Assembly: GCF_963921235.1 (NCBI RefSeq)
Contig: NC_086108.1
Span: forward strand, 83,082,001-83,146,000
DNA length: 64,000 nucleotides
Source: Mobula hypostoma
Taxonomy: Eukaryota
Reading direction: 5' to 3'
Every line of letters begins with the position of its first letter. Positions within the stretch are counted from its first letter, which is position 1. The notes under the pieces were generated by a model. It did not search any database and was not told the DNA's origin. It saw nothing but the letters and a program-made list of their open reading frames with translations. Positions 2,735 to 55,395 of the stretch are shown in pieces. Position numbers and translations under genes: made by a program.

Positions 2735-3485
2735 AATAGAAATAAACTGCAGAATTTGAAAGTCTGAAATTAAAGCAGAAAACCAGGGGCCTAAACGGTC
2801 CTTTCAGATGAATCAGTGATACATTTGCACTTCTTACAATCTAATGTACTGCATTTGGTATTCACAACGTAGTCTCTGCTACACTGGAGAAGCCAAATAT
2901 AGACTGGGGTGGTCATATTGAGGACAATGGAACAGTGACTCTGACCTTCCAGTTACGTATCACTTGAATTCAACATCACACATCCACTCTGTGGACTCCT
3001 GCACTGTTATAATGAGGCCCAATCCAACCTTGAGGAATAACACCTTACTTTCAGTATGGGCACACTGCTGCTTGGGCTGAATATCAAATTCTCCAGCTTT
3101 GCACTTATTATTTGTGTCTGTATTGGATCTGGTCATTTGTACCCCTGCCATCATTTTGCCCCTGTTTTTTCTCCTTCAATTTGTATGGTCCGGGCTGCTG
3201 GATATGTAACAGGGCCTCACCATTTACTGCATATTCCACAGACCAAGTAGATTATAGTCCTGGTAAATGCACCTTTAATGCATTTGGACTTACCTTCTCA
3301 GAGATGTTCTTTTGCTCTGCCCATCCCTTGCCCATCTTCTCTTCTCAGTAAACTGTTTTTCTCTCTTTCCCAGTTCTGACAATGGGTCCTTGGAGTGAAC
3401 CATTAACTCTGTTTTTCTTTCCACAGATGCTGCCTGACTTCCTGAGAGTTATTTTTTCAGTATTTTCTTTTCAAATACTGCATTC
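2735..3485 (+). mobile_element. Decayed PLE 3' fragment (GIY-YIG relic, degenerate HHR ~3371-3410), preceded by a short inverted tail copy (~2735-2785)
   Basis: 2786 onward reads GPKRSFQM..YICTSYNLMYCIWYSQRSLCYTGEAKYRLG, homologous to GPKQSFQV..VIYCVRCSRCGLLYIGETRRRLG. Confidence 0.7.
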
Positions 3486-4029
3486 CCTGTCTGATCCCAG
3501 TGATCTCTTTCTTCAATGTAATGCGATGGATTCCTTTTTATTTTTTAGTCTTCCTTCAACCTTTCTTCACATTGTTAGCGGGGTATATATTGTGCCATAA
3601 AAGCTGTGAAATGTGTCCTTGGAACCTGCAGGGTCAGCATTGTTAGTGGAATCCACAAACATAAAGAGAGGTTAGTTTGTCACAGGAAATGACAATTTCT
3701 AACTTGTTCCCTTTACACACTTCAAATCATTGTCATTTATAATGTACTGCCAGGAGGCCTTATAAATTGTGACTTACTTTGAGATGCGTGACTTACACTG
3801 AGTTAGTCCTAGATGTTTTGATTTCCCATTTGGTTGTAATCATGTTCCTTTTTGTATAGAAATTGTGTATAATTTGCGTTTTCCTTGTGAATGATGTTTA
3901 TATGATGCTGTGCAGCTGTGATGCTGCTACATGTAAGGTTTTCATTCCACGAAGTGCATAAATGCACTTGTATTTAGTGCAATAAACCTAAGTTTGATTT
4001 TGAAGATGATTTTGGAAATACCACTGCCA

Positions 4030-4655
4030 TTAAATGAAGATGGCGATGCTACGCAACGCAGCGCGCGCAGCTCTCCGGTGAAATGATATCATATTTGTAA
4101 GTAGGATGCCGTGCACAATTCTGATTTGATGGAGACAGACATGAGAAGCACAGAGGAACATCTGGAGAAACTTCTGAAATGCCCGGCTCGCTGCCGCTGC
4201 TACTGTGCGATCAAGAATCTCCGGAGGGAAGGCCCCAAAATCCTCGGCTTTGCCTGCTGCTGGCAGCCGAGGCTGGGGTCGAAGTGTTCGGCAGAAATGG
4301 TGCTGGGTACTCGGTATCGGAGGCTCAAAGTTTTCGGATGACTCAGAGTCGGACTGTGGTCGGGCATAGCAGGGAGAGTTTTCTTCCTTCTCCCGTCTGC
4401 GTGAGATGTAGGACTTTTGAGAGACTTTGAACTTTTTTACTGCGCCCATGGCCTGTTCTTCATCAAGTTATGGTATTGTTGCACTGTTGTAACTACATGT
4501 TATAATTATGTGGTTTTTGTTAGTTTTTCAGTCTTGGTCTGTCCTGTGTTTCTGTGATATCACACCGGAGGAATATTGTATCATTTCTTAATGCATGCAT
4601 TACTAAATGACAATAAAAGAGGACTGCGTGTCCTCATAATCTAATCTATTCTAAT
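4030..4655 (+). repeat. Unclassified CpG-rich interspersed repeat, probably a young non-autonomous retroelement
   Basis: Starts AAGATGGCG; CpG-rich body in an AT-rich background; AATAAA then a (TCTAA)n-like tail. Confidence 0.45.
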
Positions 4656-6204
4656 TTTCTGTTCTCATTGTTACCTTTCCTAATCCTCAATAACAAAGAG
4701 GAAAATATTTCACAATAGCATCCACTCTTTATAATGTTACTTTATCTGTCTCCTCCATCCTTAACATGTAATTTTCCTATTCACATCCGATAGGATCTCC
4801 CCAAGATAGTGCATGGCAAATAATTATTTCGCAACACACGCTCTTCCTTGCAACAAGGTCATCATAGACACCCATAATGTTCAGACCTGAGTCAGCAATC
4901 TCATTCTTCTAAGAGCAGATTAAAAGATTCACAATATCGAGGGCTGAAGGGCCTGTACTGTGGTGCAACATTTGGAGATCTACGTTCTAACATTGATCTA
5001 GGTTTCAGATGGTAATATTATATCAATTAAATCTCCAATTCTCTAAATTGTGTTGCCCTCAGATTTGAAATGCCCTTTGGGTGCAAGGTTGTAAAATACA
5101 AACTAGTGTGTTTAAAAACTGAGCACCTTGTGGGGGGAGCTGGAAAATTGTTGAAGAGGGCCCTTTCCTAAGATGTTCCTCTGCTGGATGTGACAGGATT
5201 TATTCCCCCAGTGGGCTGGCATCGAAACAGAAGTTATTAGTAAGCTAGTGACATTTAAAAAGGCTTTGCTTTTCTGCAAAGGTTCCCAGATACAGGTAAC
5301 GTATGTCACTTTCAACAGTAGATTTTTATAGTGGAGAATTTCATTCTGCATCGTCTCAGAGAAAGGAGAATCAAGCCTGGTGGAAAGAGTCATCATGAGA
5401 TTTGTGACCAGGAATGCAATTTCCTAACTAACTAGTAAGACCCCCAGAGTAATGAGGTTTCTATATCTAAGCCAGTATACTAAAAACATGATGGCTGTTT
5501 TACTGAGCGCTGCATTGAGTTCCAGTTCTTGCAGATACAGAGTAGATTATGCCTCCAAACCTGATTACTAGCTTTGGAGGACAGAGTTATGAGTGACAGT
5601 TTGAAAAACCTAAATATTTCCAATATAAAATAAATTTAAGGAGATGGGATATTGTAAAAGGTACCGTGGAGTAGAAAGATTCTTTGTCTAGCATAAGTTC
5701 AGTTATATCTGCAAATGGGAGGCCTCAAACATTAAGGTGGTGGAAATCATAAATTGGGAATATTACAAAAGGAGTCTACTTGGCCGATGGTAGTCGTGTC
5801 ATCTCAGAAGTATTTTTAAGTGACATTCTTAAACTCCTTCTTCGTAGCTCTGCAAAAGCCTCCAAAATGGTTTACTGTTCTCTGCCTTTGATTGCTGCTC
5901 TTCCCAAATACATTACCTCATCTTTTGCCTACCTGACCAGCCCATCAACAACCTAAATCCATCATCCCCTTTATTACCACTGCCAATTTTTGTATCACTT
6001 AAAGACAACTTGAACATGGTCCCTACATTGCAGTACTAATCATAGGTATAATGCCTCATAATCTCCCATTGTCTTGTTGATTGGTAGTAGGATTATTTAG
6101 ATTACATCTATTTCTATTTTTTATATTTCTCTTATTCCCAGCCATGCAGGTAACCTTCTGAGAGAGCAATCTCCTTCTTTGACAAGGCTCTGTGAGATTC
6201 CTGC

Positions 6205-6600
6205 AATTTAGCAGTCTCGGTAGTCTCCTTGGTATGAACATAGAATTCTCCAACTTCCGGTAATTCCCTCCCCCTCCCTTCTTCTATCCCTATTTCACTC
6301 TAACCCTCCCCCAGCTCCCTCATGGTTCCGTCTCCTTCTCCTTCTACTACCCATTGTTTTCAGGGCTATGATGTCAATGCCTCCCCTCCCCCACCCCTTT
6401 GTCTTTCAAATTACTGCTCTTTCAACTGAAGCTACAAGCATTCTTCAAATCCTTCCCCATCTTTCATTCTTCAGTCCTGACAAAGTGTTCTGGCCCGAAA
6501 CGTCGACTCATCATTTCTAACTGATGCTGCCCGACCTGCTGAGTTCATCCAGCATACTGAAAGTGTTGCTTTGATCACAATATCTGCATATTTTTTTGTG
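6205..6600 (+). mobile_element. PLE 3' fragment with HHR-like motif at 6472-6508 (core CTGACAA, mutated)
   Basis: GMNIEFSNFR-stop end, pyrimidine-rich UTR, 'cagtcctgacaaagtgttctggcccgaaacgtcgact'. Confidence 0.75.
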
Positions 6601-6904
6601 TCTGTGAGATTTCTGTACCCAGGGACAGCACTTAAAGAATCAAGTAAGCTGACCATCCAGTTCCTTCATTGACATAACTCTTTAGATTCTTCATGGGTGT
6701 GACATGGCAGTGCTATGTCCTCCATGTGTCTACATCTTTCAGGATAGGTTTATCTGTGCTGGCGTTTGATGTGATTGTTGAGAATGACACAGAGTGTGAC
6801 AAGGTACAGATTTGTCCAGTGGTTCTGGCAAATGACAAACAGAAGACAAGATCTATGACAATTCCACGTCTAAGAAACCATTTGAAAGAATAATAAGGTC
6901 ATCA

Positions 6905-7130
6905 GACATAGGAGCAGAATTAGGCCATTCAGCCCACCAAGTCCACTCTGCCACTCCATCATGGATGATCCCAGATCCCACTCAACCCCATACACCTGCT
7001 TTCTCGCCATATCCTTTGATGCCCTGACCGATCAGGAAACGATCAACTTCCACCTTAAATATACCCACAGACTTGGCCTCCACTGCAGTCTGTGGCAGAG
7101 CATTCCACAGACTTACTACTCTCTGGCTAA
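6905..7130 (-). mobile_element. CR1 LINE 3' fragment
   Basis: Reverse complement of the CR1 3' end seen at 11490-11720. Confidence 0.75.
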
Positions 7131-7599
7131 ATGTGACTAAATATATAATTGTCCAGAAGAGTGTGTGGGTGTGGATGTTTTATCTGTGTAAGTCTGCTGT
7201 ATGTCTACAGGTATGTGTGAGACAGCAAGAGAAATAAGAAGTAACTCTCTTACACTGTCTTCACTCATACAGCTGCCTACATTTTGTATAAGTCTTTATG
7301 TTGCCAAAAGCTCTAGATTGTGTTGCACATTTTAGTTTCTTTCCTTTGGCCTTGTAATTATTCTGAGAACTTCTTAAAGATATATGGGGAATCAATGCCA
7401 TCTGCAGTCCATATAGTGTGTGGGTGGTGGAAAAGCAAGGATTCCTGAGCTTGATAGCAGCAACTGGTATGTATACGTATTTTAACTCACTGGAATAACA
7501 GTAAATTACTTCTAAGTTGCAGCCATGCCACAGTACAAACTCACTTCATAAGACTCTCCATCTCATGTTCTCGATATTTAAGGTGAAAGAAGGAAAAGG

Positions 7600-8020
7600 G
7601 GATGGGAATCATGAAGGGGGGGCATTAACAGAAGTTCACCCTCCACCCCCCTCTCTTTCACTGTTTCCCATCACCTTTTCTCTCCCACCTTATCTCCTTG
7701 CCCGCCCATTACCTCCCTCTGGTGCTCCTCCCCCCTTTTCTTTCTTCCATGGCCTTCTGTCTCCTTCACCAATCAGCTTCCCAGCTCTTTTCGTCATCCA
7801 TCCCCCTTCAGGTTTCACCTATCACCTGGTGTTTCTCTATCCTAACCCCCCACCTTTTAAATCTATTCCTCAGCTTTTTTTTTGCCAGTCCTGCCAAAGG
7901 GTTTTGGCCCAAAATGTTGACTGTGCTCTTTTCCTATCGATGCTGCCTGGTCTGCTGAGTTCCTCCAGCATTTTTGCATGCGTTGTTCAGATGTCCAGTA
8001 CCTGCAAATTTTCTTCTGTT
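7600..8020 (+). mobile_element. PLE 3' UTR fragment with degenerate HHR (7886-7923); short inverted piece at ~7600-7636
   Basis: 'cagtcctgccaaagggttttggcccaaaatgttgactg...gatgctgcctggtctgctgagttcctccagc'. Confidence 0.7.
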
Positions 8021-8721
8021 TGTCCATAGGATAAAAATTGAGACCGTGGATTAGTAGAGAGAAGTGTGGGATTGTGTGCATTTTCCATCTGTGTGGGATC
8101 ACAACTCTGACCACATTTGGAATGTTCACCCTACAGATACTTTGGATCAGATATTTTAGATTTCTCTTATCACTGGTAGATGCATGAAAATAGGAAAAGT
8201 TTTATAAAAGTAAATACATTTTCCTATTCACTGTAAATAACCCTCGCTCTGTTTTAGAATTTATGTCAGTTGTCAGACATTCCCTCAGGCAGCCTGCTGT
8301 GCATATGTGAGTTTCTCCCAGTTTGCTGATGACTGCTTATCATAAACTTTAGGCAGGAAAACCACTGCAAGCAAAAATCAGCATTTTCCTATGTTGTGGG
8401 ATTTCTAACAAATAGAGTCCAAATGGTTTTCCCTTCTTTCCAAAATAAGACAATGTCTTGGGTTTGGGTGTGACAAATCTGCAGATAATTACTGCATCTT
8501 GCTATCCTTTTATAGAAAACACTCAATTTTTCTGCAATTGGACAATATATTTCCAATGCTTCAAGCCACTGGATGAATTTCAACCAATATAAATCGAATA
8601 GTACCTACAGTGTTGCAAATACAATCAAATATTGATACTTGAATAAATATTGGTTTAATTTAGTTTAATATCCTTCCTGCACTGCTATATTACAAATATT
8701 TTAATCAGCATTAAACATCAA

Positions 8722-11700
8722 CTTAATAAAATATTTAATGATATGATATTGAAGGGAGCAATCACTCTATTGGGAGTATTCTATAGACACTCAACAGCAA
8801 CAGAGACACCGAGGAGCAGATCAGGAGGCTCATTTTGGAAAAGTGCAAAAATAGCAGGATTGTTGACATGGGTGAATTCATCTTCCCTAATATTGATTAG
8901 TACCTCCTTAGTGCAAAATTTTCAGATAAGGCAGAATTTGTTAGGTGTTTTAGAAAAGATTCCTGACACAAACTGTCAATGGACCAACTAGAAGAGAAGG
9001 CAATACTGGATCTTGTATCAGGTGATGAATCTGATCAGGTGACAGATCTCTCAGTGCATGAGTATTTCTTAGACAGTGTCCCCAATTCCCTGACCTTTAA
9101 CATAGCCTTGGACAGGGATAGCAGTAGATGGTATGGACAAGTATTTATTCAAGGAAGGCCAATTTAGGATATTATTAGGCAGGAACTTGGGAGCATACAA
9201 TGGGAACAGATGTACTCATAGAAATGCACAATGCAAATACAGAGGTTGTTTTGGGAGTACTTTCATGAGGTTCTGGATACATTTATCCCACCGAGGGAAA
9301 GAATGGTAGGGGGAAGGAAGCATGGTTGGCAAGAGAAGTAGAACAGTCAAGAGTAAGAAGGAAGCATATTTAAGGTTTAGGACAGGGCTCTTGTAAGTTA
9401 TAAGGTAGCCAGGAAAGAGCTTAAGAATGGACTTAGGAGACCCAGAATGGGACATGAGAAAGCCTTGGCTATTAGAATTAAGGAAACCCTAAGGCATTCA
9501 ACATGTATATGAAAAACAGAGGGATGACTAAAGTGAAGATAGGACCAATTAGGGATAAAAGAGGAAATATATGCCTGGAGTTGGAGGCAGTAGGGAAGGT
9601 CCTTAATGAATACTTTGCTTCAATATTCAGCAGTGAGTGGGACCTTGACAAACGTGAGGTCAGCATAGAAAAGGCTAATATGCTGAAAGATGTCAAGGTT
9701 AATAAAGAGAATAGGTCTCCGGGGCCAGATATAATAGTACACCAAGCTACTACAGGAAGCAAATAAAGATACTGTGGTACATTCAGTGATGATATTTTGT
9801 ATATTCACTAGCCACAGGAGTAGTACCAAAAGACTGAAGGGTGGAAAATGTTATTCCTTTGCTCAAGAAAGAAAAATGGAATAACTTTGGGAGTTATAGA
9901 CCAGTGAGTCTTGTAACAATGGTGGGCAAAACATTTGCAGTGGATTCTTCTAGACAGGATTTATGAGCATTGGAGAAGCATAACCTGCATAGCTTTGTGA
10001 GAGGCGGGCTATACTTAGTGAACCTGATTAACTCTCTTTAAGGAAGCAATAAAATAAATTGAAGAAGATAGACCAGCGGATGTGGATTTCAGTAAGGCGC
10101 GCACCACCGTTTACCATTCAGAAAATCAGAAATCAGGAAGCATGGGATCTAGGGAAACTTAGCTTCATAGACTTATAATTGGCTTGCCCGCTGAAGGCAG
10201 AGGGTGGTAGTACATAAAGCATTTTCTGCCTGGATGTTGGTGATCAGTGATGTTCTGGTGGGTTAATAAGTTTGCAGATGACACAAAGGATGGTGGTGTT
10301 GTGGATTGTACAGAACATTGTCGTAGGTTATGATGGAGCATTGATAGGATGCAAAGCTTGGTTGAGAAGTGACAGATGGAGTTCAATCTAGAAAAGTGTG
10401 AAATAATACACTTCAGAAGGTTGAGCTTGAAGGCAGAGTCCAAGGTTAATGGCTGAATTCCTAGCAGTGTGGAGGAACTGAGGGATCTTGGGGTCCACGT
10501 CCACAAATCCTTCAAAGTTGCATGCAAGTCGATAGGGTGGCTAAAATATGTATGATGTGTCGTCGTCTTTTGCTTGTCAAGGGATGGAGTTCAAGAGCCT
10601 TGAGGTAATGTTGTAGCTCTATAAAACTCTGGTTAGATCACACTTGGAGTAGTGTGTTCATTTCTCGTTGCTTCATTATAGGAAGGTTGTAGAAGCTTTA
10701 GAGAGGTTGCCGTGGAAATTTTCCAGGATGCTGCCTGGGTTAGAGAGCATGTCTTACGAGAAAAGGTTGAGTGAGCTAAGGAATTTCTTTTTGGAGCAAA
10801 GGACGATGAGCGATGACTTGATAGAGGTGTATTAGATGATAAAAGACGTTGATAGAGTGGACACCAGTGCCTTTTTCTCAAGGCAGTAATAGCCAGTATG
10901 AGACAGTATTATTTTAAGGTGATTGGAGGAAAGAAGTCAGAGCTAGGTTTTTTCACAGAGAGTGGTGCACACTGCCTGGGGTGGTGGTAGATACAGTAGG
11001 GACACTTAAAACACTCTTATAAGCACATGGATGAAAGAAAAGTGGAGGGCTATGTGGGTGGGAAGCATTGGATTGATCTTGAAGTAGGTTAAGGAACTGG
11101 AACAATATTATGGGCCAAAAGGGGAATAGAATATAATGCTGAGCCTTTATAAGACACTAGTCAGGCCGCACTTGGAGTACGGTTAACAATTTTGGGCCCA
11201 TATCTCAGAAAGGATGTTGTCATTAGAGAGAGTCCTGAGAAGCTTCACATGGATGATTTTGGGAATGAAGGGGTTAATGTATGAGGAACGTTTGGCAGCT
11301 TTGGGCCTGTACTCACTGGAATTTGGAAGCATGTGTGGGGATCTCATTGAAAACTACTGAATGTTGAAAGACTAGATTGGGTGGATGTGAAGAGGATGTT
11401 TCCTGTGGTGGGGTATCCAGAATTAGAAGGCACAGCCTCAAAATTGAGGGGTGACCCTTTAGAACAGAGGTAAAGAGGAATTCTTTCAGCCAGAGAGTAG
11501 TAAATCTATGGAATGCTCTGCCACAGACTGCGGCGAAGGCAAAGTCTGTGCACATATTTAAGGCGGAAGCTGATTGTTTCCTGATCAATCAGGGCATCGA
11601 AGGATATGGTGAGAAGGCAGGTGTGGGGCGTTGAGCAGGATCTGGGATCAGCCATGATGGAATGGCGGAGCAGACTCGAAGGGCTGAATGGCCTAATTCT

Positions 11701-11770: not shown

Positions 11771-13049
11771 GGAAACACTGCAGAACATTGAAGCCTTTCA
11801 TTTAACAACAGGAACAGGTTTTCCTCCCTTTAGTTATTGAGAGTAGTTTGAATGAACCATGTAGCCATTACAGGTACTCATCACTGAATCTCTGAACAAC
11901 AATTTTTTAGCTTGCAGTCCAGTTAAGTTACTAGCACATCCAGTCAAACATCACATTCAATATAAGAAGTAATATTATGAATCACACAGTTCAGTGAATA
12001 TGAATTATAAGATGGTGTAACAAAACCCATTAAAGCCAGAAATCTCATTTCATATCATACCTGAGCAAGGAAACTCTGCTGAATATAACTACTGTCTTCT
12101 ATTAGTTATTTTATTTTGTATCAATGGTGTTGATTAAAATGCTCCATAAAGTGCTCCTGGAATTTCTATTTTACGCTGAATTACATCTGACATACACTGA
12201 ACATCATGCACCACAGTCAGATGACTTGTCAGATGTCATGAGGTGCAGAAAAAAACTGCATTTTCTCCCAGTAATAAAGTTGTTTTCTTTCTGCATTCTC
12301 AGAAAAGTGAGAGGAAAACTCATAAAATTGCTTTCTTTGATGAAGGATTTCAGAGTAAGGGATCAGATCTTATTCTTATATCAAGTTCTTAAAGAGCAAA
12401 ATCAGAATGTTCTCCACATAAAAAATTGAAATGATGACATCTCTGTACCCTGTAAACTGTGGATAAAGGGCCAATTAGGATAGAAGTCCTTAAAAATTTA
12501 TTAGGTGACAGATACAGTTCAGGGATGGTTAAGTAGCACGCTGATGAGCCATTAGACAAGTTTGAAAGACTGAATAGTTTTTACTGTCATAGTCTTTACT
12601 AAAATGTTTTCCATGAAGAAGCTGTACAGAAGACACAGTTCTATGGTGATTAAACAACTTTGTAAGCACAAGGAAGTCTCACTTGTTTTTTGCCATGTAG
12701 TAATTTTTTGAGGCTGTGTATGAGGAAGATTTTAGGAGAAAGTCATCAGGTACAGGAGTCTGCTTTGCCATTCAGTAAATTCATGGCTCATCTGATACTT
12801 AGCTTCGAATCTACTTCCCTGCCCGAACTCAATAATCTTCAGTGCCCTGTAGCCAAAAGTCTATCACCCTCAGACAGTATATTTAATATCTCGCAATTCA
12901 CATCTCTCTGGGGTACAAACTTCAAAGATTCATTACCTGCTGAGCAATAAATGACTCCTCAGTGCTGATTCCTTACCTAGAGACCCTGAATCTTGGTTCT
13001 GAAATGAATGACTTAGGGTATATTTCTTAAGTTATACTGTCCTTAAGAT

Positions 13050-13570
13050 ATGTTCAGGGAAGAGGCTCTTAAGATATATTTAGGGAAGCAGTCCATGATG
13101 TGGGATAGGAGGGGAGATGTTGGCATTGTGGTCTGCAGTCCTTGACAAGTATCCAGCAGAATTAATTTGTCAACCTCTGGACATAGGCTATGGTTTTTCT
13201 AAGTCAGAGTTGAAGTCTTCCTCAACCTCATGTGTAGCACCAAAAGTTAGGGCATAGGTATGGATGATTAAAATGTGTTGGTTCCACATTAGAGTGAGCC
13301 AGAGGGACATGGGGCTTTTTTCATTTTGCACAAGGAAGTCAAGTCCACTGATTATCTCAAGCCCAATGGTGAAGCACACTCCATGCATTGTCAGGGACAC
13401 TTCGACCCCACACACCCAAGGGTCTACTTTGCAGGAACCAAATGAAGGAGTGTTTATCAAGGGCAAAGAGGCAAGCTGGTGCCCAGCAAGACTTCAAAGG
13501 CTTCAACACTTGACTGTCTTTGATATGAATGTTCATCATTTCTTCCCACAGCAAATTATTTAGTCCAGCC
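13050..13570 (-). mobile_element. Old RTE-type LINE endonuclease fragment
   Basis: HGVCFTI...IIHTYALT..ATHEVEEDFNSDLEK resembles the RTE APE motifs HGVGFAI...ISAYAPT...KEDFYSDL. Confidence 0.55.
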
Positions 13571-13616
13571 TTTTTGCCACTATGAACTTGAAATCAATAT
13601 GACCAAATGCTAACAA

Positions 13617-14047
13617 CCTCCAAGAGGACCACACCTTGTCGTGGTTTGGAGGCTTGCATGCCTCAATGACCTGGAGAGCTATGTTGGCTGGAGTCAGGGC
13701 TTTACGCTTTGGCTCTTGGTAGGGTCACACTTGCCAAACAGGTCAAAAGGGTAGAAGCCAGACAAAGAGTGGTCACCAGTCCTCCATGTTCTGAGGTTTA
13801 GCTCAGGGCTCACAACTCTAACTTCTAAAACAAAATTGTTATGGAAACAGCATTGAAGAATCCTTCTACATCTCTGCGCGACAAAATTCCTTAGTCTCCA
13901 CCCGGGACTTGCATGACGGACAGTAGTGATAACCGAGAAGAAGCTACTGACATGATGAAGGAAGTCATGAACATCCTCAGAAATGGAAGACCTTCATTGC
14001 TGCTCTAAATGCCATTGGCATAATGGACAGTAAGTAAATAAGTAAGT
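13617..14047 (+). mobile_element. RTE-derived bipartite non-autonomous retroelement, copy 1
   Basis: 12-bp TSD AAATGCTAACAA (13605-13616 / 14048-14059); RTE-like 5' end 'caccttgtcgtggtttggaggcttgc'; (TAAG)n tail; second copy at 52242. Confidence 0.7.
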
Positions 14048-14189
14048 AAATGCTAACAAAGAAGCAACAAGACATTAGAAGAAACTTCTCTCTGTTATAA
14101 AGTTCTAAAACATGACAGAGAAGTATTTAAGTCACAAATCCACAGCCACACCACCCTTTTCTTGAAAGAGGAAGATATACCAAGGAATC

Positions 14190-14483
14190 ATAGAGGGATA
14201 TAATTATGACCACATTTGAGAAAGGAGATAAATCTAACTGCAATCAGCTACAGAGGGTCTTCATGCTATCTGTTGCGAGATACCTCACCCAATGGCTAGA
14301 GAGCTGTTCCCAAATCACTGTGTGTTTTGAAGCACAATAGGCAAAAAATACTGAGGTCAATGCTTCCATGAGAAATGCTGGAAACATAAACAACCACTAC
14401 AGATGTGATATTTTCCAACTTTATTCAAGCCATTAGTTCCTTCATATGGGATGGACAATTGGAAAGCACTTTCATTAAATTTA
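14190..14483 (+). mobile_element. Old RTE RT fragment, left half (split by the PLE)
   Basis: KGDKSNC..YRG-like motif at ~14220-14260; continues after 19245. Confidence 0.5.
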
Positions 14484-14585
14484 AACGCAAACAACAGGAA
14501 TTCTGCAGATGCTGGAAATTCAAGCAACACACATCAAAGTTGCTGGTGAACGCAGCAGGCCAAGCAGCATCTATAGGAAGAGGCG

Positions 14586-14623
14586 CAGTCGACGTTTCAG
14601 GCCGAGACCCTTCGTCAGGACTA
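14586..14623 (-). ncRNA. Minimal type I hammerhead ribozyme (left arm)
   Basis: Exact reverse complement of 19133-19170. Confidence 0.85.
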
Positions 14624-14914
14624 ACTGAAGGAAGAGTGAGTAAGGGATTTGAAAGCTGGAGGGGGAGGGGGAGATGCAAAATGATAGGAGAAGACGGGAG
14701 GGGGAGGGATAGAGCCGAGAGCTGGACAGGTGATAGGCAAAAGGGGATACGAGAGGATCATGGGACAGGAGGTCCGGGAAGAAAGACGGGGGGGGTGACC
14801 CAGAGGATGGGCAAGAGGTATATTCAGAGGGACAGAGGGAGAAAAAGGAGAGTGAGAGAAAGAATGTGTGCATAAAAATGAGTAACAGATGGGGTACGAG
14901 GGGGGAGGTGGGGC

Positions 14915-15787
14915 CTAGCGGAAGTTAGAGAAGTCAATGTTCATGCCATCAGGTTGGAGGCTACCCAGACGGAATATAAGGTGTTGTTCCTCCAACCTGA
15001 GTGTGGCTTCATCTTTACAGTAGAGGAGGCCGTGGATAGACATGTCAGAATGGGAATGGGACGTGGAATTAAAATGTGTGGCCACTGGGAGATCCTGCTT
15101 TCTCTGGCGGACAGAGCGTAGATGTTCAGCAAAGCGGTCTCCCAGTCTGCGTCGGGTCTCACCAATATATAAAAGGCCACATCGGGAGCACCGGACGCAG
15201 TATATCACCCCAGTCGACTCACAGGTGAAGTGATGCCTCACCTGGAAGGACTGTTTGGGGCCCTGAATGGTGGTGAGGGAGGAAGTGTAAGGGCATGTGT
15301 AGCACTTGTTCCGCTTACACGGATAAGTGCCAGGAGGGAGATCAGTGGGGAGGGATGGGGGGGACGAATGGACAAGGGAGTTGTGTAGGGAGCGATCCCT
15401 GCGGAATGCAGAGGGGGGGGAGGGAAAGATGTGCTTAGTGGTGGGATCCCGTTGGAGGTGGCGGAAGTTACGGAGAATAATATGTTGGACCCGGAGGCTG
15501 GTGGGGTGGTAGGTGAGGACCAGGGGAACCCTATTCCTAGTGGGGTGGTGGGTGGATGGAGTGAGAGCAGATGTACGTGAAATGGGGGAGATGCGTTTAA
15601 GAGCAGAGTTGATAGTGGAGGAAGGGAAGCCCCTTTCTTTAAAAAATGAAGACATCTCCCTCGTCCTAGAATGAAAAGCCTCATCCTGAGAGCAGATGCG
15701 GCGGAGACGGAGGAATTGCGAGAAGGGAATGGCGTTTTTGCAAGAGACAGGGTGAGAAGAGGAATAGTCCAGATAGCTGTGAGAGTC
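14915..15787 (-). pseudogene. 5'-truncated inverted copy of the PLE ORF C-terminus (thumb, Cys linker, GIY-YIG)
   Basis: 246-aa ORF 14915-15655 is identical to the C-terminus of the long ORF except one Q>R change. Confidence 0.9.
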
Positions 15788-15795
15788 TTCCGGTG

Positions 15796-18700
15796 ATGCC
15801 TACACCGAAGAAGTTTAGATCCTCTCTTCGACGGGAGTTCAGTGAAACCATCTCTCACTGCTCCCCATCTGTAATTTCTTCGGCTCTTCAACTTTTCGAC
15901 CACACTTTGACTCAGACTCGCTATCACAGCCATATATCCTTTCTTGGAACGTGCCTCCGTCGCCAACTTACTCCAGTTGGCTTTAGGATTCGTTTCCAAG
16001 CCTCTCAATTTGGACCTTCTGAGGATCCCAGGTACTCACATTTTATTGACTCTGCCTCTCGCCGCTTCTCCCGTCAAGCTCTGAAGGCGACGCTCTCCGC
16101 CATGAGGAGGTACTTGGTGTCCCTATCCCAGACCCTTCCACACCTTCGGGACACTTTCTTCGCCGTCTGTATTGGTCCTACCCGTTATTTCATCCTCCGT
16201 CGGATCCACGCCTGCAATCGCCGTTTTTTTGACTTTGTCATGTTAGGTAAAGATCGTAAGATCTTACATCTACGGACTCCAGAGCCTGCCGGCCCCGACG
16301 CTAGCAGGCATGAACTTTCAATTGCGGCTCCTGCCATTGATCTCGGCGGCTCCAACACCTCAGGACATATTCAAAACCCGGACTCCAGCAACGACCATGG
16401 ACACATTCGAAGTGATTACGCAACCACCAACTGCAACTCCAGCCTTGAACTCCAGGCCGGGTCTTTATGTGCTGCTGTTGTGACTCCCGTCTCCCCTTCC
16501 CCAACCACCACTCCGCAGCCCCGTCTTCCTCAGATCCCACCGTCAGCTCCTGGGCCCTCAGAGGCTCCATCTTCCTCTCACCCCAACCCTCCCCTCTCCA
16601 CTGACACCCCCAGCCTCCCCCCTCCCCCCTCTGATCCCAGCTCTCATCCGTGCCGGGTCTTTACCATCCCCTCCGACCTTCAACTGTCGGAGGCAGAACG
16701 CTCTGTTCTCAGTAAGGGCCTCACGTTTGTTCCCCTTCGCCCACACCTCAGCGAGTTCCGTGTTCGCCACGATGCGGAACTTTTCTTCCGCCGTCTCCGT
16801 CTCCGAGCCTACTTCTTCGGCAAGGACTCTTCCACCCCCACCGATGACCCCTTCTCCCGTCTTCAACCGTCCTCTTCTTCATGGACACCCCGCTCTGGTC
16901 TTCTGCCTGCTCTGGATCTCTTTATCGCTAACTGCCGACGGGACATCAACCGTCTCGACTTCACCGCACCTTGTCCCCATTCCAACCTCACTCCTTCGGA
17001 ACGCTCTGCTCTCCAATCCCTCCGCACTAATCCTAACATTATTATTAAACCCGCTGATAAAGGAGGTGCTGTTGTAGTCTGGCGTACTGACCTCTACCTT
17101 GCCGAGGCACAGCGACAACTCGCGGATACCTCCTCTTATTTACCCCTCGATCGTGACCCCACTAAGGAGCACCAGGCCATTGTCTCCCACACTATCAACG
17201 ACTTTATCCGCTCAGGGGATCTCCCATCCACTGCTACCAACCTTATAGTTCCCACACCCCGCACTTCCCGTTTCTACCTCCTACCCAAGATCCACAAACC
17301 TGCCTGTCCTGGCCGACCTATTGTCTCAGCTTGCTCCTGCCCCACCGAACTCGTTTCTGCATACCTCGACACTGTTTTATCACCCCTTGTTCAATCCCTT
17401 CCGACCTATGTTCGTGACACTTCTCACGCTCTTAAACTTTTCGATGATTTTAAGTTCCCTGGCCCCCACCGCTTTATTTTCACCATGGATGTCCAGTCCT
17501 TATATACTTCCATCCCCCATCAGGAAGGTCTCAAAGCTCTACGCTTCTTTTTGGATTCCAGACCTAATCAGTTCCCCTCTACCACCACTCTGCTCCGTCT
17601 AGCGCAATTAGTCCTTACTCTTAATAATTTCTCCTTTTGCTCCTCCCATTTCCTCCAAACTAAAGGTGTAGCTATGGGCACCCGTATGCGTCCTAGCTAT
17701 GCCTGCCTTTTTGTTGGGTTTGTGGAACAATCTATGTTCCGTGCCTATTCTGGTATCTGTCCCCCACTTTTCCTTCGCTACATCGACGACTGCATTGGCG
17801 CTGCTTCCTGCACACATGCAGAACTCATTGACTTTATTAACTTTGCCTCCAACTTTCACCCTGCCCTCAAGTTTACATGGTCCATTTCCGACACCTCCCT
17901 CCCCTTTCTAGATCTTTCTGTCTCTGTCTCTGGAGACAGCTTATCCACTGATGTCTACTATAAGCCTACTGACTCTCACAGCTATCTGGACTATTCCTCT
18001 TCTCACCCTGTCTCTTGCAAAAACGCCATTCCCTTCTCGCAATTCCTCCGTCTCCGCCGCATCTGCTCTCAGGATGATGCTTTTCATTCTAGGACGAGGG
18101 AGATGTCTTCATTTTTTAAAGAAAGGGGCTTCCCTTCCTCCACTATCAACTCTGCTCTTAAACGCATCTCCCCCATTTCACGTACATCTGCTCTCACTCC
18201 ATCCACCCACCACCCCACTAGGAATAGGGTTCCCCTGGTCCTCACCTACCACCCCACCAGCCTCCGGGTCCAACATATTATTCTCCGTAACTTCCGCCAC
18301 CTCCAACGGGATCCCACCACTAAGCACATCTTTCCCTCCCCCCCCTCTGCATTCCGCAGGGATCGCTCCCTACACAACTCCCTTGTCCATTCGTCCCCCC
18401 CATCCCTCCCCACTGATCTCCCTCCTGGCACTTATCCGTGTAAGCAGAACAAGTGCTACACATGCCCTTACACTTCCTCCCTCACCACCATTCAGGGCCC
18501 CAAACAGTCCTTCCAGGTGAGGCATCACTTCACCTGTGAGTCGACTGGGGTGATATACTGCGTCCGGTGCTCCCGATGTGGCCTTTTATATATTGGTGAG
18601 ACCCGACGCAGACTGGGAGACCGCTTTGCTGAACATCTACGCTCTGTCCGCCAGAGAAAGCAGGATCTCCCAGTGGCCACACATTTTAATTCCACGTCCC

Positions 18701-18843
18701 ATTCCCATTCTGACATGTCTATCCACGGCCTCCTCTACTGTAAAGATGAAGCCACACTCAGGTTGGAGGAACAACACCTTATATTCCGTCTGGGTAGCCT
18801 CCAACCAGATGGCATGAACATTGACTTCTCTAACTTCCGCTAG
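15796..18843 (+). CDS. PLE polyprotein: N-terminal domain, reverse transcriptase, Cys-rich linker, GIY-YIG endonuclease
   Basis: Open ~1015 aa from ATG 15796; motifs IKPADKGGAVVV, FYLLPKIHK, GRPIVS, DVQSLYTSI, GVAMGT, RYIDD, YYKPTD, CKQNKCYTC, VIYCVRCSRCGLLYIGET, RFAEH, GMN. Confidence 0.93.
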   Translation: MPTPKKFRSSLRREFSETISHCSPSVISSALQLFDHTLTQTRYHSHISFLGTCLRRQLTPVGFRIRFQASQFGPSEDPRYSHFIDSASRRFSRQALKATLSAMRRYLVSLSQTLPHLRDTFFAVCIGPTRYFILRRIHACNRRFFDFVMLGKDRKILHLRTPEPAGPDASRHELSIAAPAIDLGGSNTSGHIQNPDSSNDHGHIRSDYATTNCNSSLELQAGSLCAAVVTPVSPSPTTTPQPRLPQIPPSAPGPSEAPSSSHPNPPLSTDTPSLPPPPSDPSSHPCRVFTIPSDLQLSEAERSVLSKGLTFVPLRPHLSEFRVRHDAELFFRRLRLRAYFFGKDSSTPTDDPFSRLQPSSSSWTPRSGLLPALDLFIANCRRDINRLDFTAPCPHSNLTPSERSALQSLRTNPNIIIKPADKGGAVVVWRTDLYLAEAQRQLADTSSYLPLDRDPTKEHQAIVSHTINDFIRSGDLPSTATNLIVPTPRTSRFYLLPKIHKPACPGRPIVSACSCPTELVSAYLDTVLSPLVQSLPTYVRDTSHALKLFDDFKFPGPHRFIFTMDVQSLYTSIPHQEGLKALRFFLDSRPNQFPSTTTLLRLAQLVLTLNNFSFCSSHFLQTKGVAMGTRMRPSYACLFVGFVEQSMFRAYSGICPPLFLRYIDDCIGAASCTHAELIDFINFASNFHPALKFTWSISDTSLPFLDLSVSVSGDSLSTDVYYKPTDSHSYLDYSSSHPVSCKNAIPFSQFLRLRRICSQDDAFHSRTREMSSFFKERGFPSSTINSALKRISPISRTSALTPSTHHPTRNRVPLVLTYHPTSLRVQHIILRNFRHLQRDPTTKHIFPSPPSAFRRDRSLHNSLVHSSPPSLPTDLPPGTYPCKQNKCYTCPYTSSLTTIQGPKQSFQVRHHFTCESTGVIYCVRCSRCGLLYIGETRRRLGDRFAEHLRSVRQRKQDLPVATHFNSTSHSHSDMSIHGLLYCKDEATLRLEEQHLIFRLGSLQPDGMNIDFSNFR

Positions 18844-19132
18844 GCCCCACCTCCCCCTCGTACCCCATCTGTTACTCATTTTTATGCACACATTCTTTCT
18901 CTCACTCTCCTTTTTCTCCCTCTGTCCCTCTGAATATACCTCTTGCCCATCCTTTGGGTCACCCCCCCGTCTTTCTTCCCGGACCTCCTGTCCCATGATC
19001 CTCTCGTATCCCCTTTTGCCTATCACCTGTCCAGCTCTCGGCTCTATCCCTCCCCCTCCTGTCTTCTCCTATCATTTTGCATCTCCCCGTCCCCCTCCAG
19101 CTTTCAACTCCCTTACTCACTCTTCCTTCAGT

Positions 19133-19170
19133 TAGTCCTGACGAAGGGTCTCGGCCTGAAACGTCGACTG
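19133..19170 (+). ncRNA. Minimal type I hammerhead ribozyme (right arm, 3' UTR)
   Basis: Stem I UAGUC/GACUG; core CUGACGA plus one A; stem II GGGU/GCCU with CUCG loop; GAAA; palindromic ACGU in place of stem III; predicted cleavage after GUC at 19165. Confidence 0.85.
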
Positions 19171-19245
19171 CGCCTCTTCCTATAGATGCTGCTTGGCCTG
19201 CTGCGTTCACCAGCAACTTTGATGTGTGTTGTTTCATTAAATTTA

Positions 19246-19660
19246 TCTCCTTACAGAATTTGACCTCTATTTCACAATTTGTGATCCTAACCAATGGGCT
19301 CACAATAGGTTTGGTTTCAGTGCAGAGTGGTGTCAAGGAAGGCCATGTTATTACTCCAGCAACTCTTTAACCTGCCTTGCTGTAATGCTTAACCTCTTCT
19401 CCAGCAAGTTTCCAACTAGAGTGAAACTAAGCCGCAGGACCAATCCAATGCGAAACTCTTTGACATAATCTGTTTCCATTTCAGATTCAAGGTTTCCCCA
19501 ACCTGAACACTGAGCTGCAGTGGGTGGATGATGTTTGCATAGGCATGTGCTCACAGGCTTATCTAAAGTCACTATTGACTCATTCACTGAAGTAAATGAC
19601 AAGATAAGCCATACACTCAACATCCACAAAAGAAAGGTCTACCAAGCTGCTCTCCTGCCT
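19246..19660 (+). mobile_element. Old RTE RT fragment, right half
   Basis: VQSGVKEGHVITPATL resembles RTE GVKQGCVIAPTLF. Confidence 0.55.
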
Positions 19661-20056
19661 TTGTAAAATATAGCCCTCTAACAATCAAATCCCATAATGA
19701 GCCTCTGAAAAATATGCAGTTTATTAAAAACAAATTAAAGCTCTAACTAGTAATTATAAACAATAAAATTGGCCCAAGGAAAATTTCATGAAGAGTATCA
19801 TAGTATTTAATGCAACAAAATGCAAGAAAAACACTAATAGAGACAAGTTCCTTCATAACAGGCATGCAATTGCTACCAGGCAGCAAGTTTTCCAGCTATA
19901 AGCCGCTAATACTTTTACAATTGGAATCCTATTGCCAGTGTTATGAAAAGATTCAATTTACAGGCTGAACTAGCTTATGAGCACCCAGTTTATGGATACC
20001 CATTCATACAAACCATCTCCTGAAATTCAAAAATCCAACATGAGTGCATATGCTCC

Positions 20057-20156
20057 TTCCATTATGAAGGAACTTTTTCTGTGGAAGGTTGTGGTGATAG
20101 TTTACCACAATCTTCCACAGAAAAAGTTCCTTCATAATGGAAACTATCACCACAAC
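20057..20156. repeat. 41-bp inverted repeat with 4-nt loop, plus a nested 16-bp inverted copy
   Basis: 20057-20097 pairs with 20102-20142 (2 G:T mismatches); 20088-20103 is the reverse complement of 20141-20156. Confidence 0.9.
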
Positions 20157-20159
20157 TAA

Positions 20160-20950
20160 TGAAGAGGCAGGCAAAGCCTTGGCTGACTCAAGGGTCGAGG
20201 CATGTGAGTGCAATGCAAAGTCGGGACGATGTCAAAGCATGGTCGAGGGGAAGTGGTCAGAGCAAGGTTGAGGCATGTTCGATATGGAGTTGGAGTTGGA
20301 GATGGAATTGGAACAAGCAGAGCAGAGAAAAGTCAGAGCGGAGGAGTTTCGCAGCCTGTCCCGAGAGCAAGGTTTGATTGGTCTAAGGGCCAGGCAGATT
20401 TGGAAAGGTCGGGTACGGGCTGCAACGTAGCAGTGGGGTCCATGCCCAAAGCTATCAATGCAGCAGGCTCCAGGTCCTAGTGCGGGGGTACGACCTGGTG
20501 TTTGGACAATTTAAACGCGGGGCCAGATGGACCAAAAAGGCTGGGTGCTGAAACCCGGGGCAAGGGTTGGACCGGTTTGGTTCTGCTTGTGGCTACGCAA
20601 TGTTGACTCTGCCTTCAGCATTGAGAGTGAGGCTGTGGGCCTGCTCCGGCTGCTCTGGGCTTTGTGTCTGCAAGCTTCGCGATGATCTGATCCACTGACT
20701 GATGAACTGAGGCTAACGCTGTGTCCTGCTCCAGCTGCTCTGGGCTTCAGTTCTACAGACTCACTTTCATTCTGAATGCTGTTGCTTGCTTTTATTGTTT
20801 GCACGATTTGATTTTTTTCTCCCTCTTTCTGCACATTGGGTGTAGGTCTTTTTTTCGAATTGGGTTCTTTCGGGTTTCTTGTAAGCAGACAAATCTCAAG
20901 GTCGTATAATTTATACGTATGTTGATAAGAAATGTAGTTTGAACTTTGAT
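20160..20950 (+). repeat. Non-coding interspersed repeat with a LINE-type (Rex1/L2-like) 3' tail
   Basis: GC-rich body; tail 'aatctcaaggtcgtata...tttgaactttga' similar to ~45627-45700 (minus) and ~62670-62770. Confidence 0.4.
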
Positions 20951-21006
20951 TTTGTCCTTTATAGCAGCGTCTCTTGCACTTTATTGCTTTGAAACATTCA
21001 TTGTGC

Positions 21007-22580: not shown

Positions 22581-22924
22581 AATAGCAATAGTAATCAGAA
22601 CGTCTCAGATTTGCCTACGGTCAGGATGGAAGATTCTGGGTCATGTGAAGTTCCATATGCTGGTGTTTCTGACAATGTATTCTATTTCTAGAGAGACAGA
22701 GAGTTTTCACACTCTCTCCTTACTTTCAGTAATTGTCTTTCTTATTAGCCTTATGTGTATTCAATGACATTCACTGTGGAGGTTATGCACCTTTACTATT
22801 TTTATGTATTCCTCTACTTATGATTGAAATTGATTTATGCCAGTCTGTAAAAATGGAACTTCTTTGAAGGAAAGGGGGGGAAGAAAGGAGTAATAGGAAT
22901 ATGTTTTTGCTGGCAAAAGTACAA

Positions 22925-23106
22925 CAGTTTCTTCAGATGCTGGAAATCTTGTGCAACATGCACAAAATGCTGGAGGAACTCGGGAGTCAGGCAGCATCCA
23001 TGGAGGGAATAAACAGTCATTGTTTTGGGCCAAGATCCTTCATCGGGATTCCGCGCCCTCCCCCCCGCCGCCCATGGATGCTGCCTGATTTCCAGAGTTC
23101 CTCCAG
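22925..23106 (-). mobile_element. Short PLE tail with degenerate HHR (23014-23050) and a short inverted arm (~23072-23106)
   Basis: 'ctggaggaactcgggagtcaggcagcatccatgg' versus 'ccatggatgctgcctgatttccagagttcctccag'. Confidence 0.7.
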
Positions 23107-32010: not shown

Positions 32011-34836
32011 AAACCCATTTAACAGAAACAGAACATCAGAAACTAAAGAGAGATTGGGTGGGTAGTGTTGTTGCAGCTTCATTTAATTCAAAAGCGAGGA
32101 GAGTAGCAATTTTGATTAATAAAACGTTACCAATTAGAATACAAATGTAATAACTGATTCTGCAGGGAGATATGTGATTATACGCTGTCAACTTTTTTCT
32201 GAATTATGGATTCTCATGAATATTTATGCACCAAATGAAAATGATGCAAAATTCATACAAGAAGCTTTTTTGAATTTGGCTGATGTACATGAAAAAATAT
32301 TAATAGGATGAGATTTTAATTTTTGCCTAGACCCATTCTTAGATAGATCAACTAAGGCTGTCACAAAATCGAAGGTAGTAAAACTAACTTTATCATTGAT
32401 GAAAGATTTAAATTTGATTGATATATGGAGAGAATTAATCCCAAAGAAAGAGACAATCCGTTCTATTCTAATAGACACAAAACTTACTCAAGGATAGATT
32501 TTTTCCTATTATCAATGAATATTCAACACAGAATGAAAAATATGGAATATAAGGCAAGAATATTGTCAGATCATTCTCCTTTATTAATGACAATAATAAT
32601 GATTGATAAGGAAGAAGTGACTTATTCAATATTATTAAAACGTCAAGATTTTTGTGATTTTATGAAAAAACAGATCCAATTTTTTTTGGATACAAACTCT
32701 CATTCAGTGGATGATAAATTTATACTATGGGATGTGATGAAAGCATATTTGAGGGGTCAGATAATAAGTTATATGACTAAAATTAAGAAAGAATAAATGG
32801 CAGAACTAGATCAATTGGAAAAAGAAATTACAAAATTAGAAAAAGAATCTCAAAGACATATGACAGAAGAAAAACAAAGGCAACTTGTCAATAAGAAGTT
32901 ACAATATAATACGCTTCAGACGTATAGAATGGAAAAAGCAATCATGAGAACTAAGCAAAGGTATTATGAGTTAGGTGAGGAAGCACACAAAATTCTTGCC
33001 TGGCAGTTGTAAACAGAACAAGCTTCCAAAACGATAAATGCAATTAGAACAAGTGCAAATAAAATTACTTATAAACCTTTAGAAATTAATGAAACCTTCA
33101 AAAGTTTCTATTCTAAATTTTATAAATCAGAATCACAAAATGATGTTAATGAGATAGAAAGGTTTTTATCACAAGTAACTCTTCCAAAATTGAATTTGGA
33201 AGAACAAAAGGGATTAGATATGCCTTTTGCATTAAAAAAGGTTGAAGAAGCTTTAGGATCACTCCAAAGTAATAAATCTCCAGGATAGGATGGTTTTCCA
33301 CCTGAATTTTATAAAAAGTTAAAAATTTATTATTTCCTCCTTTTATGGAGTTAATACGCCAAGCGGAAAAAGTACATAAACTCCCAGAATCTTTTTCAAC
33401 AGCGATTGTAATAGTATTGCCAAAGAAAGATAGGGATCCTTTAAAACCAGCATCATATAGGCCTATTTCTTTGTTGAACACGGATTGTAAAATAATAGCA
33501 AAAATTTTATCGAATAGATTATCTAAATATTTACCATAATTAATACATATGGATCAAATAGGATTTATTAAAAATAGACAATTGGCAGATAATGTAACTC
33601 GGCTACTCAGTATAATTCATTTGGCACAAAAAAGGGAGGAGATGAGTATAGTAATAGCCTTGGATGCAGAAAAAGCATTTGATAGATTGGAATGGGATTT
33701 TTTATTTAAAGTATTCGAAAAATATGGGTTAGGAATACCTTTCATAAACTGGATTAAAACTTTAAATACTAACCCTAGTGCTAAAGTAGTGACAAATGGT
33801 CAAATTTCAACACCATTCCAGTTAAAAAGGTCAACTAGACAAGGTTGTCCATTATCACCTGCTTTATTTGTACTGGCGATAGAGCCATTAGCAGAACTAA
33901 TTAGAATTGATCCAGATTTTAGAGTTAATCAGGAGGAATATAAAATTAACCTATCTGCTGATGATGTTTTGATTTACTTAACAAACCCACAGCATTCGTT
34001 ACATAAATTATCTTCTAGACTGGATGAATATGGGAAAGTATCAGGGTGTAAAATAAATTGGGATAAAAGTGAAATTTTACCTCTTACTAAAGGAGACTAT
34101 AGCCAATGTCGATTAGCAACCCAATTTAGATGGCCGGTAAATGGTATAAAGTATTTAGGTATAAGACTTGATAATGATGTAAAGAATTTATATAAATTTA
34201 ATTATTTACCACTATTGAAAAAAATTCAAGAAGATCTTGACAAATGGATGATACTACCAATAACATTAGTGGGTAGAGTCAATGTTGTAAAAATGAATAT
34301 ATTTCCTAGATTACAGTTTTTGTTTCAAACATTACCAATACAATTGCCACAGAAATTTTTTCAAGAGTTAAATAAATGTGTGGGAACATTTCTTTGGAAA
34401 GGTAAGATGTCAAGAATATCATTAGAAAAATTGACATGGAAATTTGAGTTAGGAGGGTTACAGCTTCCAAACTTTAAGAATTATTATAAAGCAAATCAAC
34501 TTAGATTTATTGCATCTTTCTTCGATGATCGAAAACCAGCATGGATTAAAATAGAATTAGATAAGATAGGAGAAAATACACCCAAAGATTTTATATATAA
34601 ATGGGAACCTAAATGGATATGGGAAAAGAAAGAATCTCCTATATTAAAACATTTGATTGATCTATGGAATAAGATAAACGTTGATAATGAAATAAATCTT
34701 TATTAGCAAGGAGACCTTTGTTCCAAAACAGACTTATTCCTTTTACAATAGATAATCAACTTTTATATAATTGGTACCAAAAAGGGATTAGAACTATAGG
34801 ACGCAGCAGGCCAGGCAGCATCTCTAGGAAGAGGTA

Positions 34837-34874
34837 CAGTCGACATTTCAGGCCGAGACCCTTCGTCAGGACTA
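34837..34874 (-). ncRNA. Minimal HHR (GAAAUGUC variant)
   Basis: Minus strand reads tagtcCTGACGAagggtctcggcctGAAAtgtcgactg. Confidence 0.75.
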
Positions 34875-34881
34875 ACCTGAC

Positions 34882-34919
34882 TAGTCCTGACGAAGGGTCT
34901 CGGCCTGAAACATCGACTG
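34882..34919 (+). ncRNA. Minimal HHR (GAAACAUC variant)
   Basis: tagtcCTGACGAagggtctcggcctGAAAcatcgactg. Confidence 0.75.
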
Positions 34920-55129: not shown

Positions 55130-55265
55130 ATCTTCTTCATTCTGCCTTCTTCCTCCTTGCTTTCCAGTCCTGATGAAGGGTCTCAGCCCAGAATGTTGAC
55201 TGTTAATTCCCATCCATAGATGCTGCCTGAGCTGCTGTGTTCATCCAGCATTTTGTTTATGTTGC
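55130..55265 (+). mobile_element. PLE tail fragment with degenerate HHR (55165-55202)
   Basis: cagtcCTGATGAagggtctcagcccagaatgttgactg (GAAA lost). Confidence 0.7.
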
Positions 55266-55395
55266 TTCTCTATTTGTATTGAGTCACAATACAGAACCAG
55301 ATAAGCAGTCTGGAAGGGGAAGCTCAATGGACAAGTGACACTGATACATTAAACATTATTATTTGGCTTCATTAAAATACTAATCTTTTGATTAC

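Follow-up and report, generated by a model that had tools for sequence, protein, structure and literature searches.

An inverted Penelope-like insertion with one tailed and one tail-less arm in a 14-bp target-site duplication, probably primed from both nicked strands on one donor RNA

Introduction

How does a retroelement come to end, on both of its sides, in its own 3' end within one target-site duplication (TSD)? This question is raised by a locus in a 64-kb stretch of DNA, analysed here as a whole and referred to as the window, in which a Penelope-like element (PLE) carries an inverted second arm. Inverted arms, TSDs and a tail on one side belong to the general PLE scheme (Craig et al., 2021, PMC8557442), and inverted forms are known for the Penelope element of D. 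virilis (PMC2377424). How the inverted repeats and the one-sided tail are formed is declared open in the available text of PMC8557442, and the available texts of PMC9977147, PMC2377424 and 10.64898/2026.07.22.740005 offer no mechanism for the inversion. In our literature search, apparently no paper states the one-tail rule described below or a twin-priming model for PLEs; older reviews may propose it.

An initial annotation of the window had described a young PLE whose arms were made in one integration event, in a manner consistent with priming from both nicked target strands. The locus is a genuine, fairly young copy of a PLE of known kind; the element and its anatomy are already known, and the locus itself is ordinary. 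Inverted copies having been published for PLEs, the interest of the case rests on a family-wide test of the mechanism and not on the locus. The family data support priming from both strands, which we infer from finished insertions: it is probable that a single event produced this insertion, with its 14-bp TSD, one tailed and one tail-less arm, and that both nicked strands primed on the same donor RNA.

Structure and age of the insertion

Two exact copies of the 14-mer TTTCATTAAATTTA, and no more, are present in the 64-kb window; they lie directly at the two ends of the element (Table 1), where the initial annotation had placed them. Between these copies, the tail and the inverted arm occupy 14484-15787 on the minus strand and the body 15786-19231, and the junction at which they meet was the sole full-length match among the 40 scored of 2600 candidates. 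A recount of the differences between the arms gave the same figures as had been estimated before, namely seven substitutions and two 1-nt indels in C runs; an eighth mismatch in the list, 14524/19232, is the boundary of the arms and was excluded from the substitution count. Six of the seven differences are private to the right arm and one to the left. At 18 of 18 polymorphic sites the two arms agree, and they have four rare variants in common, three of them synonymous. The earlier description of the element was accurate with one exception: it overlooked that 14484-14524 is element sequence, a 41-nt tail which in tandem copies joins the 3' end to the start or leader of the ORF. At this tailed end, 6 nt of the adjoining TSD are identical to the element's own continuation.

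Table 1. Features of the insertion and its target site (window coordinates)
Feature	Position	Strand	Basis or remark
Left TSD copy (14-bp)	14470..14483	+	two exact copies in window
41-nt tail, left arm only	14484..14524	-	element sequence
Inverted 5'-truncated arm: RT thumb, linker, GIY-YIG, 3' UTR	14525..15787	-	arm comparison and Pfam
Putative minimal type I hammerhead motif, left arm	14587..14622	-	sequence
Head-to-head inversion junction, 2-nt overlap (TC)	15786..15787	.	sequence
Single open ORF, 1015 aa	15796..18843	+	ORF reading, Pfam, structure model
Codon 632, RT motif B, reads Arg	17689..17691	+	Gly in 63/63 homologs
Right arm: 3' part of the body, ends at tail-less site	17971..19231	+	arm comparison
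CX4CX2C linker (C882, C887, C890), Neptune/Nematis type	18439..18465	+	alignment
GIY-YIG endonuclease, CCHH motif, conserved R943, H947, E992	18547..18771	+	Pfam and alignment
Putative minimal type I hammerhead motif, right arm	19134..19169	+	sequence; predicted cut after 19165
Right TSD copy (14-bp)	19232..19245	+	two exact copies in window

The window holds a second, short inverted insertion of the same family at 34801-35016, whose 14-bp TSD has 1 mismatch and which combines a tailed arm with another that is unusually short. Older copies of related PLE ends lie at 6444-6554, 22921-23048, 55166-55267, 61833-61949 and 62202-62609, with 72-78% identity to the reference unit.

Single-copy contigs of a related organism (organism B; two runs of one sample) match the left flank up to exactly 14483 and continue for about 845 letters in non-element sequence. 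Organism B appears to be without the insertion, judging from contig matches rather than from letters. In the assembly, the right host flank is single-copy; a search there for a second copy or an empty allele of this flank found only the locus itself. Because the arms differ by 0.55% and the flanks differ from organism B at 11/538 and 4/298 positions, the insertion may date back roughly a quarter to two fifths of the way to the split between organisms A and B, if rates are equal. Contigs of organism A, possibly from the same sample as the assembly, extend over the left junction by 22 letters, fewer than the 31 needed, and no contig among those listed bridges the inversion junction at 15787/15788. 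An assembly artefact nevertheless seems unlikely, because the TSD has the modal length and the arms both share and differ in rare variants. The earlier claim of one integration event finds agreement in this single modal TSD, in the four shared variants and in the end of the contig match at 14483.

The host flanks (14200-14483 and 19246-19500) may be read as a decayed RT-like frame, continuous over the empty site and reminiscent of LINEs of the RTE type; as a Pfam search of both flank pieces gave no match, no argument is built on this frame. If the site is empty in organism B, the length of its contig places the contig end near a near-perfect 39-bp hairpin at 20057-20142, which has weak matches to miRNA families, all below gathering scores.

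The encoded protein

The ORF is open over its 1015 aa, in line with the earlier reading, and the protein has the single-ORF layout of EN+ PLEs, in which an RT is followed by a C-terminal GIY-YIG domain: long N-terminal helices (residues 1-160) and a disordered Pro/Ser-rich part (164-283) precede a telomerase-like RT and the endonuclease. Pfam places RVT_1 at residues 507-669 and GIY-YIG at 918-992, both at E about 1e-3 and below the curated cut-offs; the GIY-YIG copy of the left arm is matched at E 1.4e-4. Residues 330-1015 have 906 homologs at E<=0.001 among 7297 candidates, and the closest named one among the matches listed is a shark protein with 72% identity. In an alignment of 63 of the 120 homologs listed, mostly the longer ones, RT motifs A-C, the GxK-F/Y and DKG motifs, the CCHH motif and the catalytic R/H/E/N residues are all found (G308-L-T-F, D421-K-G, C925, C928, H947, H963, R943, E992 and N1008, the last just past the GIY-YIG domain). 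The structure model (pLDDT 85.9) has four telomerase reverse transcriptases (TERTs) as its top Foldseek matches, at E 8e-10 to 9e-9 and with low TM-scores of 0.25-0.29, and is consistent with the telomerase-like RT of EN+ PLEs. A sequence search of the PDB with a 64-row profile gave no match at E<=0.1, and a homodimer prediction for residues 1-165, in which the alignment was not used, gave no answer, with a score of 0.00.

The initial annotation had noted that a Cys-rich linker between RT and endonuclease is typical of Neptune-type PLEs. Such a linker is present, with Cys at its three positions (C882-X4-C887-X2-C890) in 60-61 of 63 homologs, but a CX2-5CxxC linker between RT and endonuclease is a feature of Nematis as well as of Neptune (PMC8557442, available text), so that it is not diagnostic alone; relative to the canonical EN+ PLEs described there, the clade of the window element is assigned by this motif and not by a tree. 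The term 'ORF-intact', too, holds in part: the frame is open, but an invariant RT residue is changed to R632, in addition to Q604 in a position that is E in 61 of 63 aligned homologs. Both residues are rare among copies of the family (3/35 for R632 and 2/34 for Q604). Because R632 replaces a Gly that is invariant in the aligned homologs, the protein of this copy is likely to be impaired. Across the sampled loci L031-L100, an open frame of at least 1000 aa is found in 6 of 24 copies that span the ORF.

Hammerhead motifs

Each arm carries the same 36-nt minimal hammerhead motif, as had been noted initially. Judged by sequence, these are candidate ribozymes with the core, stem I and palindromic helix III of PLE hammerheads (AGTC/GACT stem I, CTGACGA, GAAA and ACGT). 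Minimal hammerheads are known in Neptune elements of fish (Cervera and De la Pena, 2014, PMC4209133), and the type I core, the short stem I, the extra base after position 9 and the palindromic helix III are shared with metazoan PLE hammerheads in general. The G10.1-C11.1 pair closing stem II is highly conserved in these, outside the descriptor, according to the available text of PMC4209133; here, in contrast, stem II is short and the pair is G.U in both window copies and in the commonest variants, G-C occurring in minor ones. The two motifs point outward solely because both arms carry the 3' end. An Rfam scan of 13000-21000 gave no hammerhead family at E<=1; its 13 matches all lie at the hairpin near 20006-20145.

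The family in the genome

The 34-nt hammerhead core has 37,833 exact matches genome-wide and a control has none, compared with copy numbers of 4,000-9,000 cited in the available text of PMC4209133. The window element is an ordinary member of this large Penelope-like family, whose reference unit measures 3516 nt and which shows the direct and inverted pseudo-LTRs (pLTRs), the partial tandems and the optional 30-40-bp tail of EN+ PLEs. Among 49 motif-bearing insertions in the first 3.85 Mb of contig C1, 25 are inverted, 13 are single and tailed, and 11 are single and tail-less; the inverted form thus makes up about half of all insertions (25/49), with one of the 24 singles, L197, being an inverted pair with a spacer.

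For a closer view, loci were sampled by patterns for the ORF start, the RT core, the hammerhead and paired ends. The resulting 203 clusters included 125 inverted insertions, of which 120 were whole, and 116 of these have a TSD of at least 9 bp; those dropped were 5 at locus edges, 3 without a TSD and 1 with a 7-bp TSD, along with at least 7 pair-picked loci that were binned as single, apparently because the identity of one arm was below the 88% threshold. TSD length is 13-15 bp in 95 of the 116, with a mode of 14 (43/116). Arm orientation and TSD length in other copies, the comparison suggested in the initial annotation, show the window locus in company.

Two loci depart from the common form. 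In L197 (3806-7246), a 13-bp TSD (1 mismatch) encloses an inverted insertion whose arms are separated by 389 nt of host DNA; 353 nt of this host DNA match the 5' flank of a copy in L201 (3962-5399; also on C1, about 480 kb apart) that has the same 5' truncation point and no tail; this suggests that the cDNA switched onto another genomic copy. In L033 (4474-5739), an array of a 310-nt unit (hammerhead, tail and the first 145 nt of the ORF) lies inside one 13-bp TSD, a retrozyme-like repeat produced in one event.

One tailed and one tail-less end

The ends of inverted insertions fall into two classes, near reference positions 3444 (tail-less) and 3480 (tailed), with an offset that scatters over 30-46 nt and reaches 51-52 in two cases. 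In the 116 inverted insertions with a TSD of at least 9 bp, a short end is paired with a tailed end 113 times and a tailed end with a still shorter one three times; two tailed or two short ends were never combined. The same holds for loci chosen irrespective of the tail, 79 of 82 of which pair a tailed with a tail-less end. Genome-wide, 1,836 short inverted pairs were counted, with a deep tail on one side in 933+898 and on both sides in 27, where about 460 would be expected if each arm chose freely; the end patterns differ slightly, so that these ratios are approximate, and they cover the one size class of short pairs. All of the first 50 short pairs have at least one arm running beyond the short site, and none of 10 fetched from the 27 double-tailed matches has a TSD over 8 bp. 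The family thus follows a near-strict rule by which an inverted insertion has one tailed and one tail-less end.

A first pattern for tails on both sides (206 matches) was too loose and was discarded, 10 classed loci and 4 duplicates proving to be of the short-plus-tail form. One double-tailed match, L215, has flanks that are mutually inverted copies and is a fold-back duplication of host DNA, not a primary insertion.

The target itself is symmetric. Outside both ends of the TSD, T is enriched at +3, +7 and +8 (56, 67 and 65% vs 30%; 222 ends, p<1e-15), identically on the tailed and the tail-less side, and the overlap between element and target averages 1.5 nt at short ends and 1.1 nt at tailed ends, compared with 0.7 nt at random sites. 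This two-fold symmetric preference fits two symmetric nicks, each providing a 3' end as a primer.

Donor identity and independence of the arms

At four non-CpG diagnostic sites, the two arms of a pair are concordant in 327 of 348 comparisons, where shuffled pairs give 53% and the best of 500 shuffles 64%. Concordance persists within subfamilies (93/98 vs 71 shuffled; 89/93 vs 63), and 15 rare variants are common to both arms, against 0.43 expected. Both arms derive from one donor. Later gene conversion between the arms could likewise make them alike; in a test of the two origins by synonymous changes, shared rare variants were 11 synonymous to 11 nonsynonymous and private ones 22:45, a difference in the direction expected of donor origin but without significance (p=0.20). 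Concordance is lower in some long pairs (L039 11/15, L196 4/7, L193 4/6 and L095 13/15), so that either two templates occur or these pairs are older.

The arms also differ in length. In 24 pairs the difference exceeds 40 nt, in favour of the tail-less arm in 16 and of the tailed arm in 8, and in 13 of the 24, the window locus included, each arm has sequence absent from the other; as neither arm can there have been copied from the other, fold-back of a cDNA cannot yield those pairs. The other 11 unequal and 92 near-equal pairs are compatible with fold-back and do not discriminate. Both arms end at the 5' edge of the hammerhead (reference unit 3325-3365, about 19112-19152 in the window) in 87 of 116 pairs, most such loci having been chosen for that length. 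The 29 junctions away from this edge all differ, 15 overlapping by 1-5 nt, 6 being flush and 8 gapped.

Proposed mechanism and alternatives

In the reading that we consider probable, the endonuclease of the element would nick the two strands of the target at positions about 14 bp from each other. From one of the resulting 3' ends, a cDNA would start at an upstream site of the RNA, giving the tail-less arm, and from the other, about 36 nt downstream, giving the tailed arm. Each cDNA would halt independently, the two cDNA ends would be joined head to head, in the window via the 2-nt overlap, and each would serve as the template for the second strand of the other; if one cDNA were lost, the result would be a plain copy, truncated at its 5' side and of one or the other end type. 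The mutual exclusivity of the two end classes suggests that both starts may sit on the same RNA molecule within a protein dimer, where the trailing RT would displace the cDNA made ahead of it; this is the least tested step. A generalisation to PLEs at large, in which twin priming would be obligate and asymmetric, a dimer nicking about 14 bp apart and copying one RNA twice from two fixed starts about 36 nt apart, is put forward tentatively, as a possibility of some weight.

Among the alternatives, one retains priming from both strands and replaces the single RNA by two separate RNAs of the same donor locus, or by two units of a tandem transcript, in an asymmetric complex whose subunits each have their own start. 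It accounts equally well for the one-tail rule, the shared variants and the free arm lengths, it makes strand displacement unnecessary, tandem donors with the 3516-nt unit do exist, and the less concordant long pairs would find an explanation. We regard it as unlikely, since it requires a built-in asymmetry to explain the shortage of double-tailed pairs, and since many source variants coexist and yet arms seldom mix. Fold-back self-priming, in which a single cDNA, or an antisense template, folds over and serves as its own primer and template, was proposed for rotifer Penelope from palindromes at inverted junctions (PMC3846280, available text). It explains directly why the arms are concordant, many short pairs do join at an imperfect hairpin located at the 5' edge of the hammerhead, and just under half of the unequal pairs are compatible with it. 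However, its simple cDNA form is excluded for the window locus, where as in 12 other pairs each arm has sequence of its own, junctions of long pairs are overlaps of 0-5 nt or short gaps, and singles of both end types are left unexplained, which makes it very unlikely overall.

Cleavage has also been invoked: the endonuclease would resolve a DNA intermediate, a hairpin or a tandem, and so yield both the tail and the inversion without two priming events. The available text of PMC8557442 gives this as the likely origin of the tail, and the element sequence after the short site matches the target preference, NNTNNNTT. Against it, the ends lie about 36 nt apart where the nuclease stagger is 13-15 bp, the tail in vitro is as long as the interval separating two RT start sites (PMC11167929, available text), and the element/target overlap at short ends is above chance, as priming expects; we hold this route to be highly improbable. 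Two separate insertions at one spot, transfer of an inverted donor or an artefact of assembly would be conceivable in a high-copy repeat whose junction is unbridged in short-read contigs, but can be given hardly any credence in view of the one modal-length TSD, of arms with rare variants in common despite 7 differences, of a junction unique among the scored matches while the off-edge junctions elsewhere all differ, and of the same form in 120 sampled loci. The preferred reading remains priming of the same donor RNA from both nicked strands.

Comparison with known systems

Inversion within one TSD is known from LINE-1, where twin priming was reportedly described by Ostertag and Kazazian in 2001. 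There, the second target end primes a second cDNA (10.1101/2024.12.14.628481; PMC2837659; available texts), and the likeness to the present family extends to the inversion lying inside a single TSD, seen here in 116 of 120 whole inverted insertions (TSD of at least 9 bp). In the LINE-1 example, however, the two cDNAs are adjacent, non-overlapping parts of the mRNA with one 3' end (10.1101/2024.12.14.628481), whereas here the 3' end is present in each arm and the arms overlap, so that inverted repeats arise, and do so in about half of the insertions. The working would be analogous and the product different.

In Pen2a_Av of Adineta vaga, an inverted pLTR closes the insert, a TSD of 8-10 bp surrounds the whole and a 31-bp tail is optional on one inverted pLTR (Arkhipova et al., 2013, PMC3846280). 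The available text of that study favours self-priming on an antisense template; unlike that proposal, the window locus and 12 others cannot come from the copying of one arm. For Poseidon of the anole, work in vitro shows nicking and extension of both strands of AT-rich targets (Frangieh et al., 2024, PMC11167929); two RT start sites bound its tail, a dimer is predicted and the hammerhead is dispensable for insertion. Ends at two sites bounding a tail and AT-rich targets are thus common to Poseidon of Anolis carolinensis and the present family, but Poseidon belongs to another clade and its start sites lie inside the ORF, here upstream of it. The available text of PMC11167929 has no treatment of inverted insertions or TSDs ('inverted' appears once, for a dT block, and 'duplication' not at all). 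Compared with the EN+ PLEs (Neptune/Nematis) of PMC8557442, as far as the available text describes them, the one-sided tail is here near-obligate and counted, and insertion is into AT-rich unique DNA rather than microsatellites, with clean TSDs of 13-15 bp.

Significance for Penelope-like elements

Thousands of young insertions with clean TSDs in this genome turn the mechanism of insertion into a countable question. The family-wide counts exclude simple fold-back for over half of the informative pairs and yield sharp predictions for an in vitro system that already exists. If true, obligate asymmetric twin priming would account at once for the inverted repeats and the tail on one side, for the synthesis of the second strand and for the even division of plain copies between the two end types (13 tailed and 11 tail-less), and it would constitute a mode of target-primed integration distinct from those of R2 and LINE-1.
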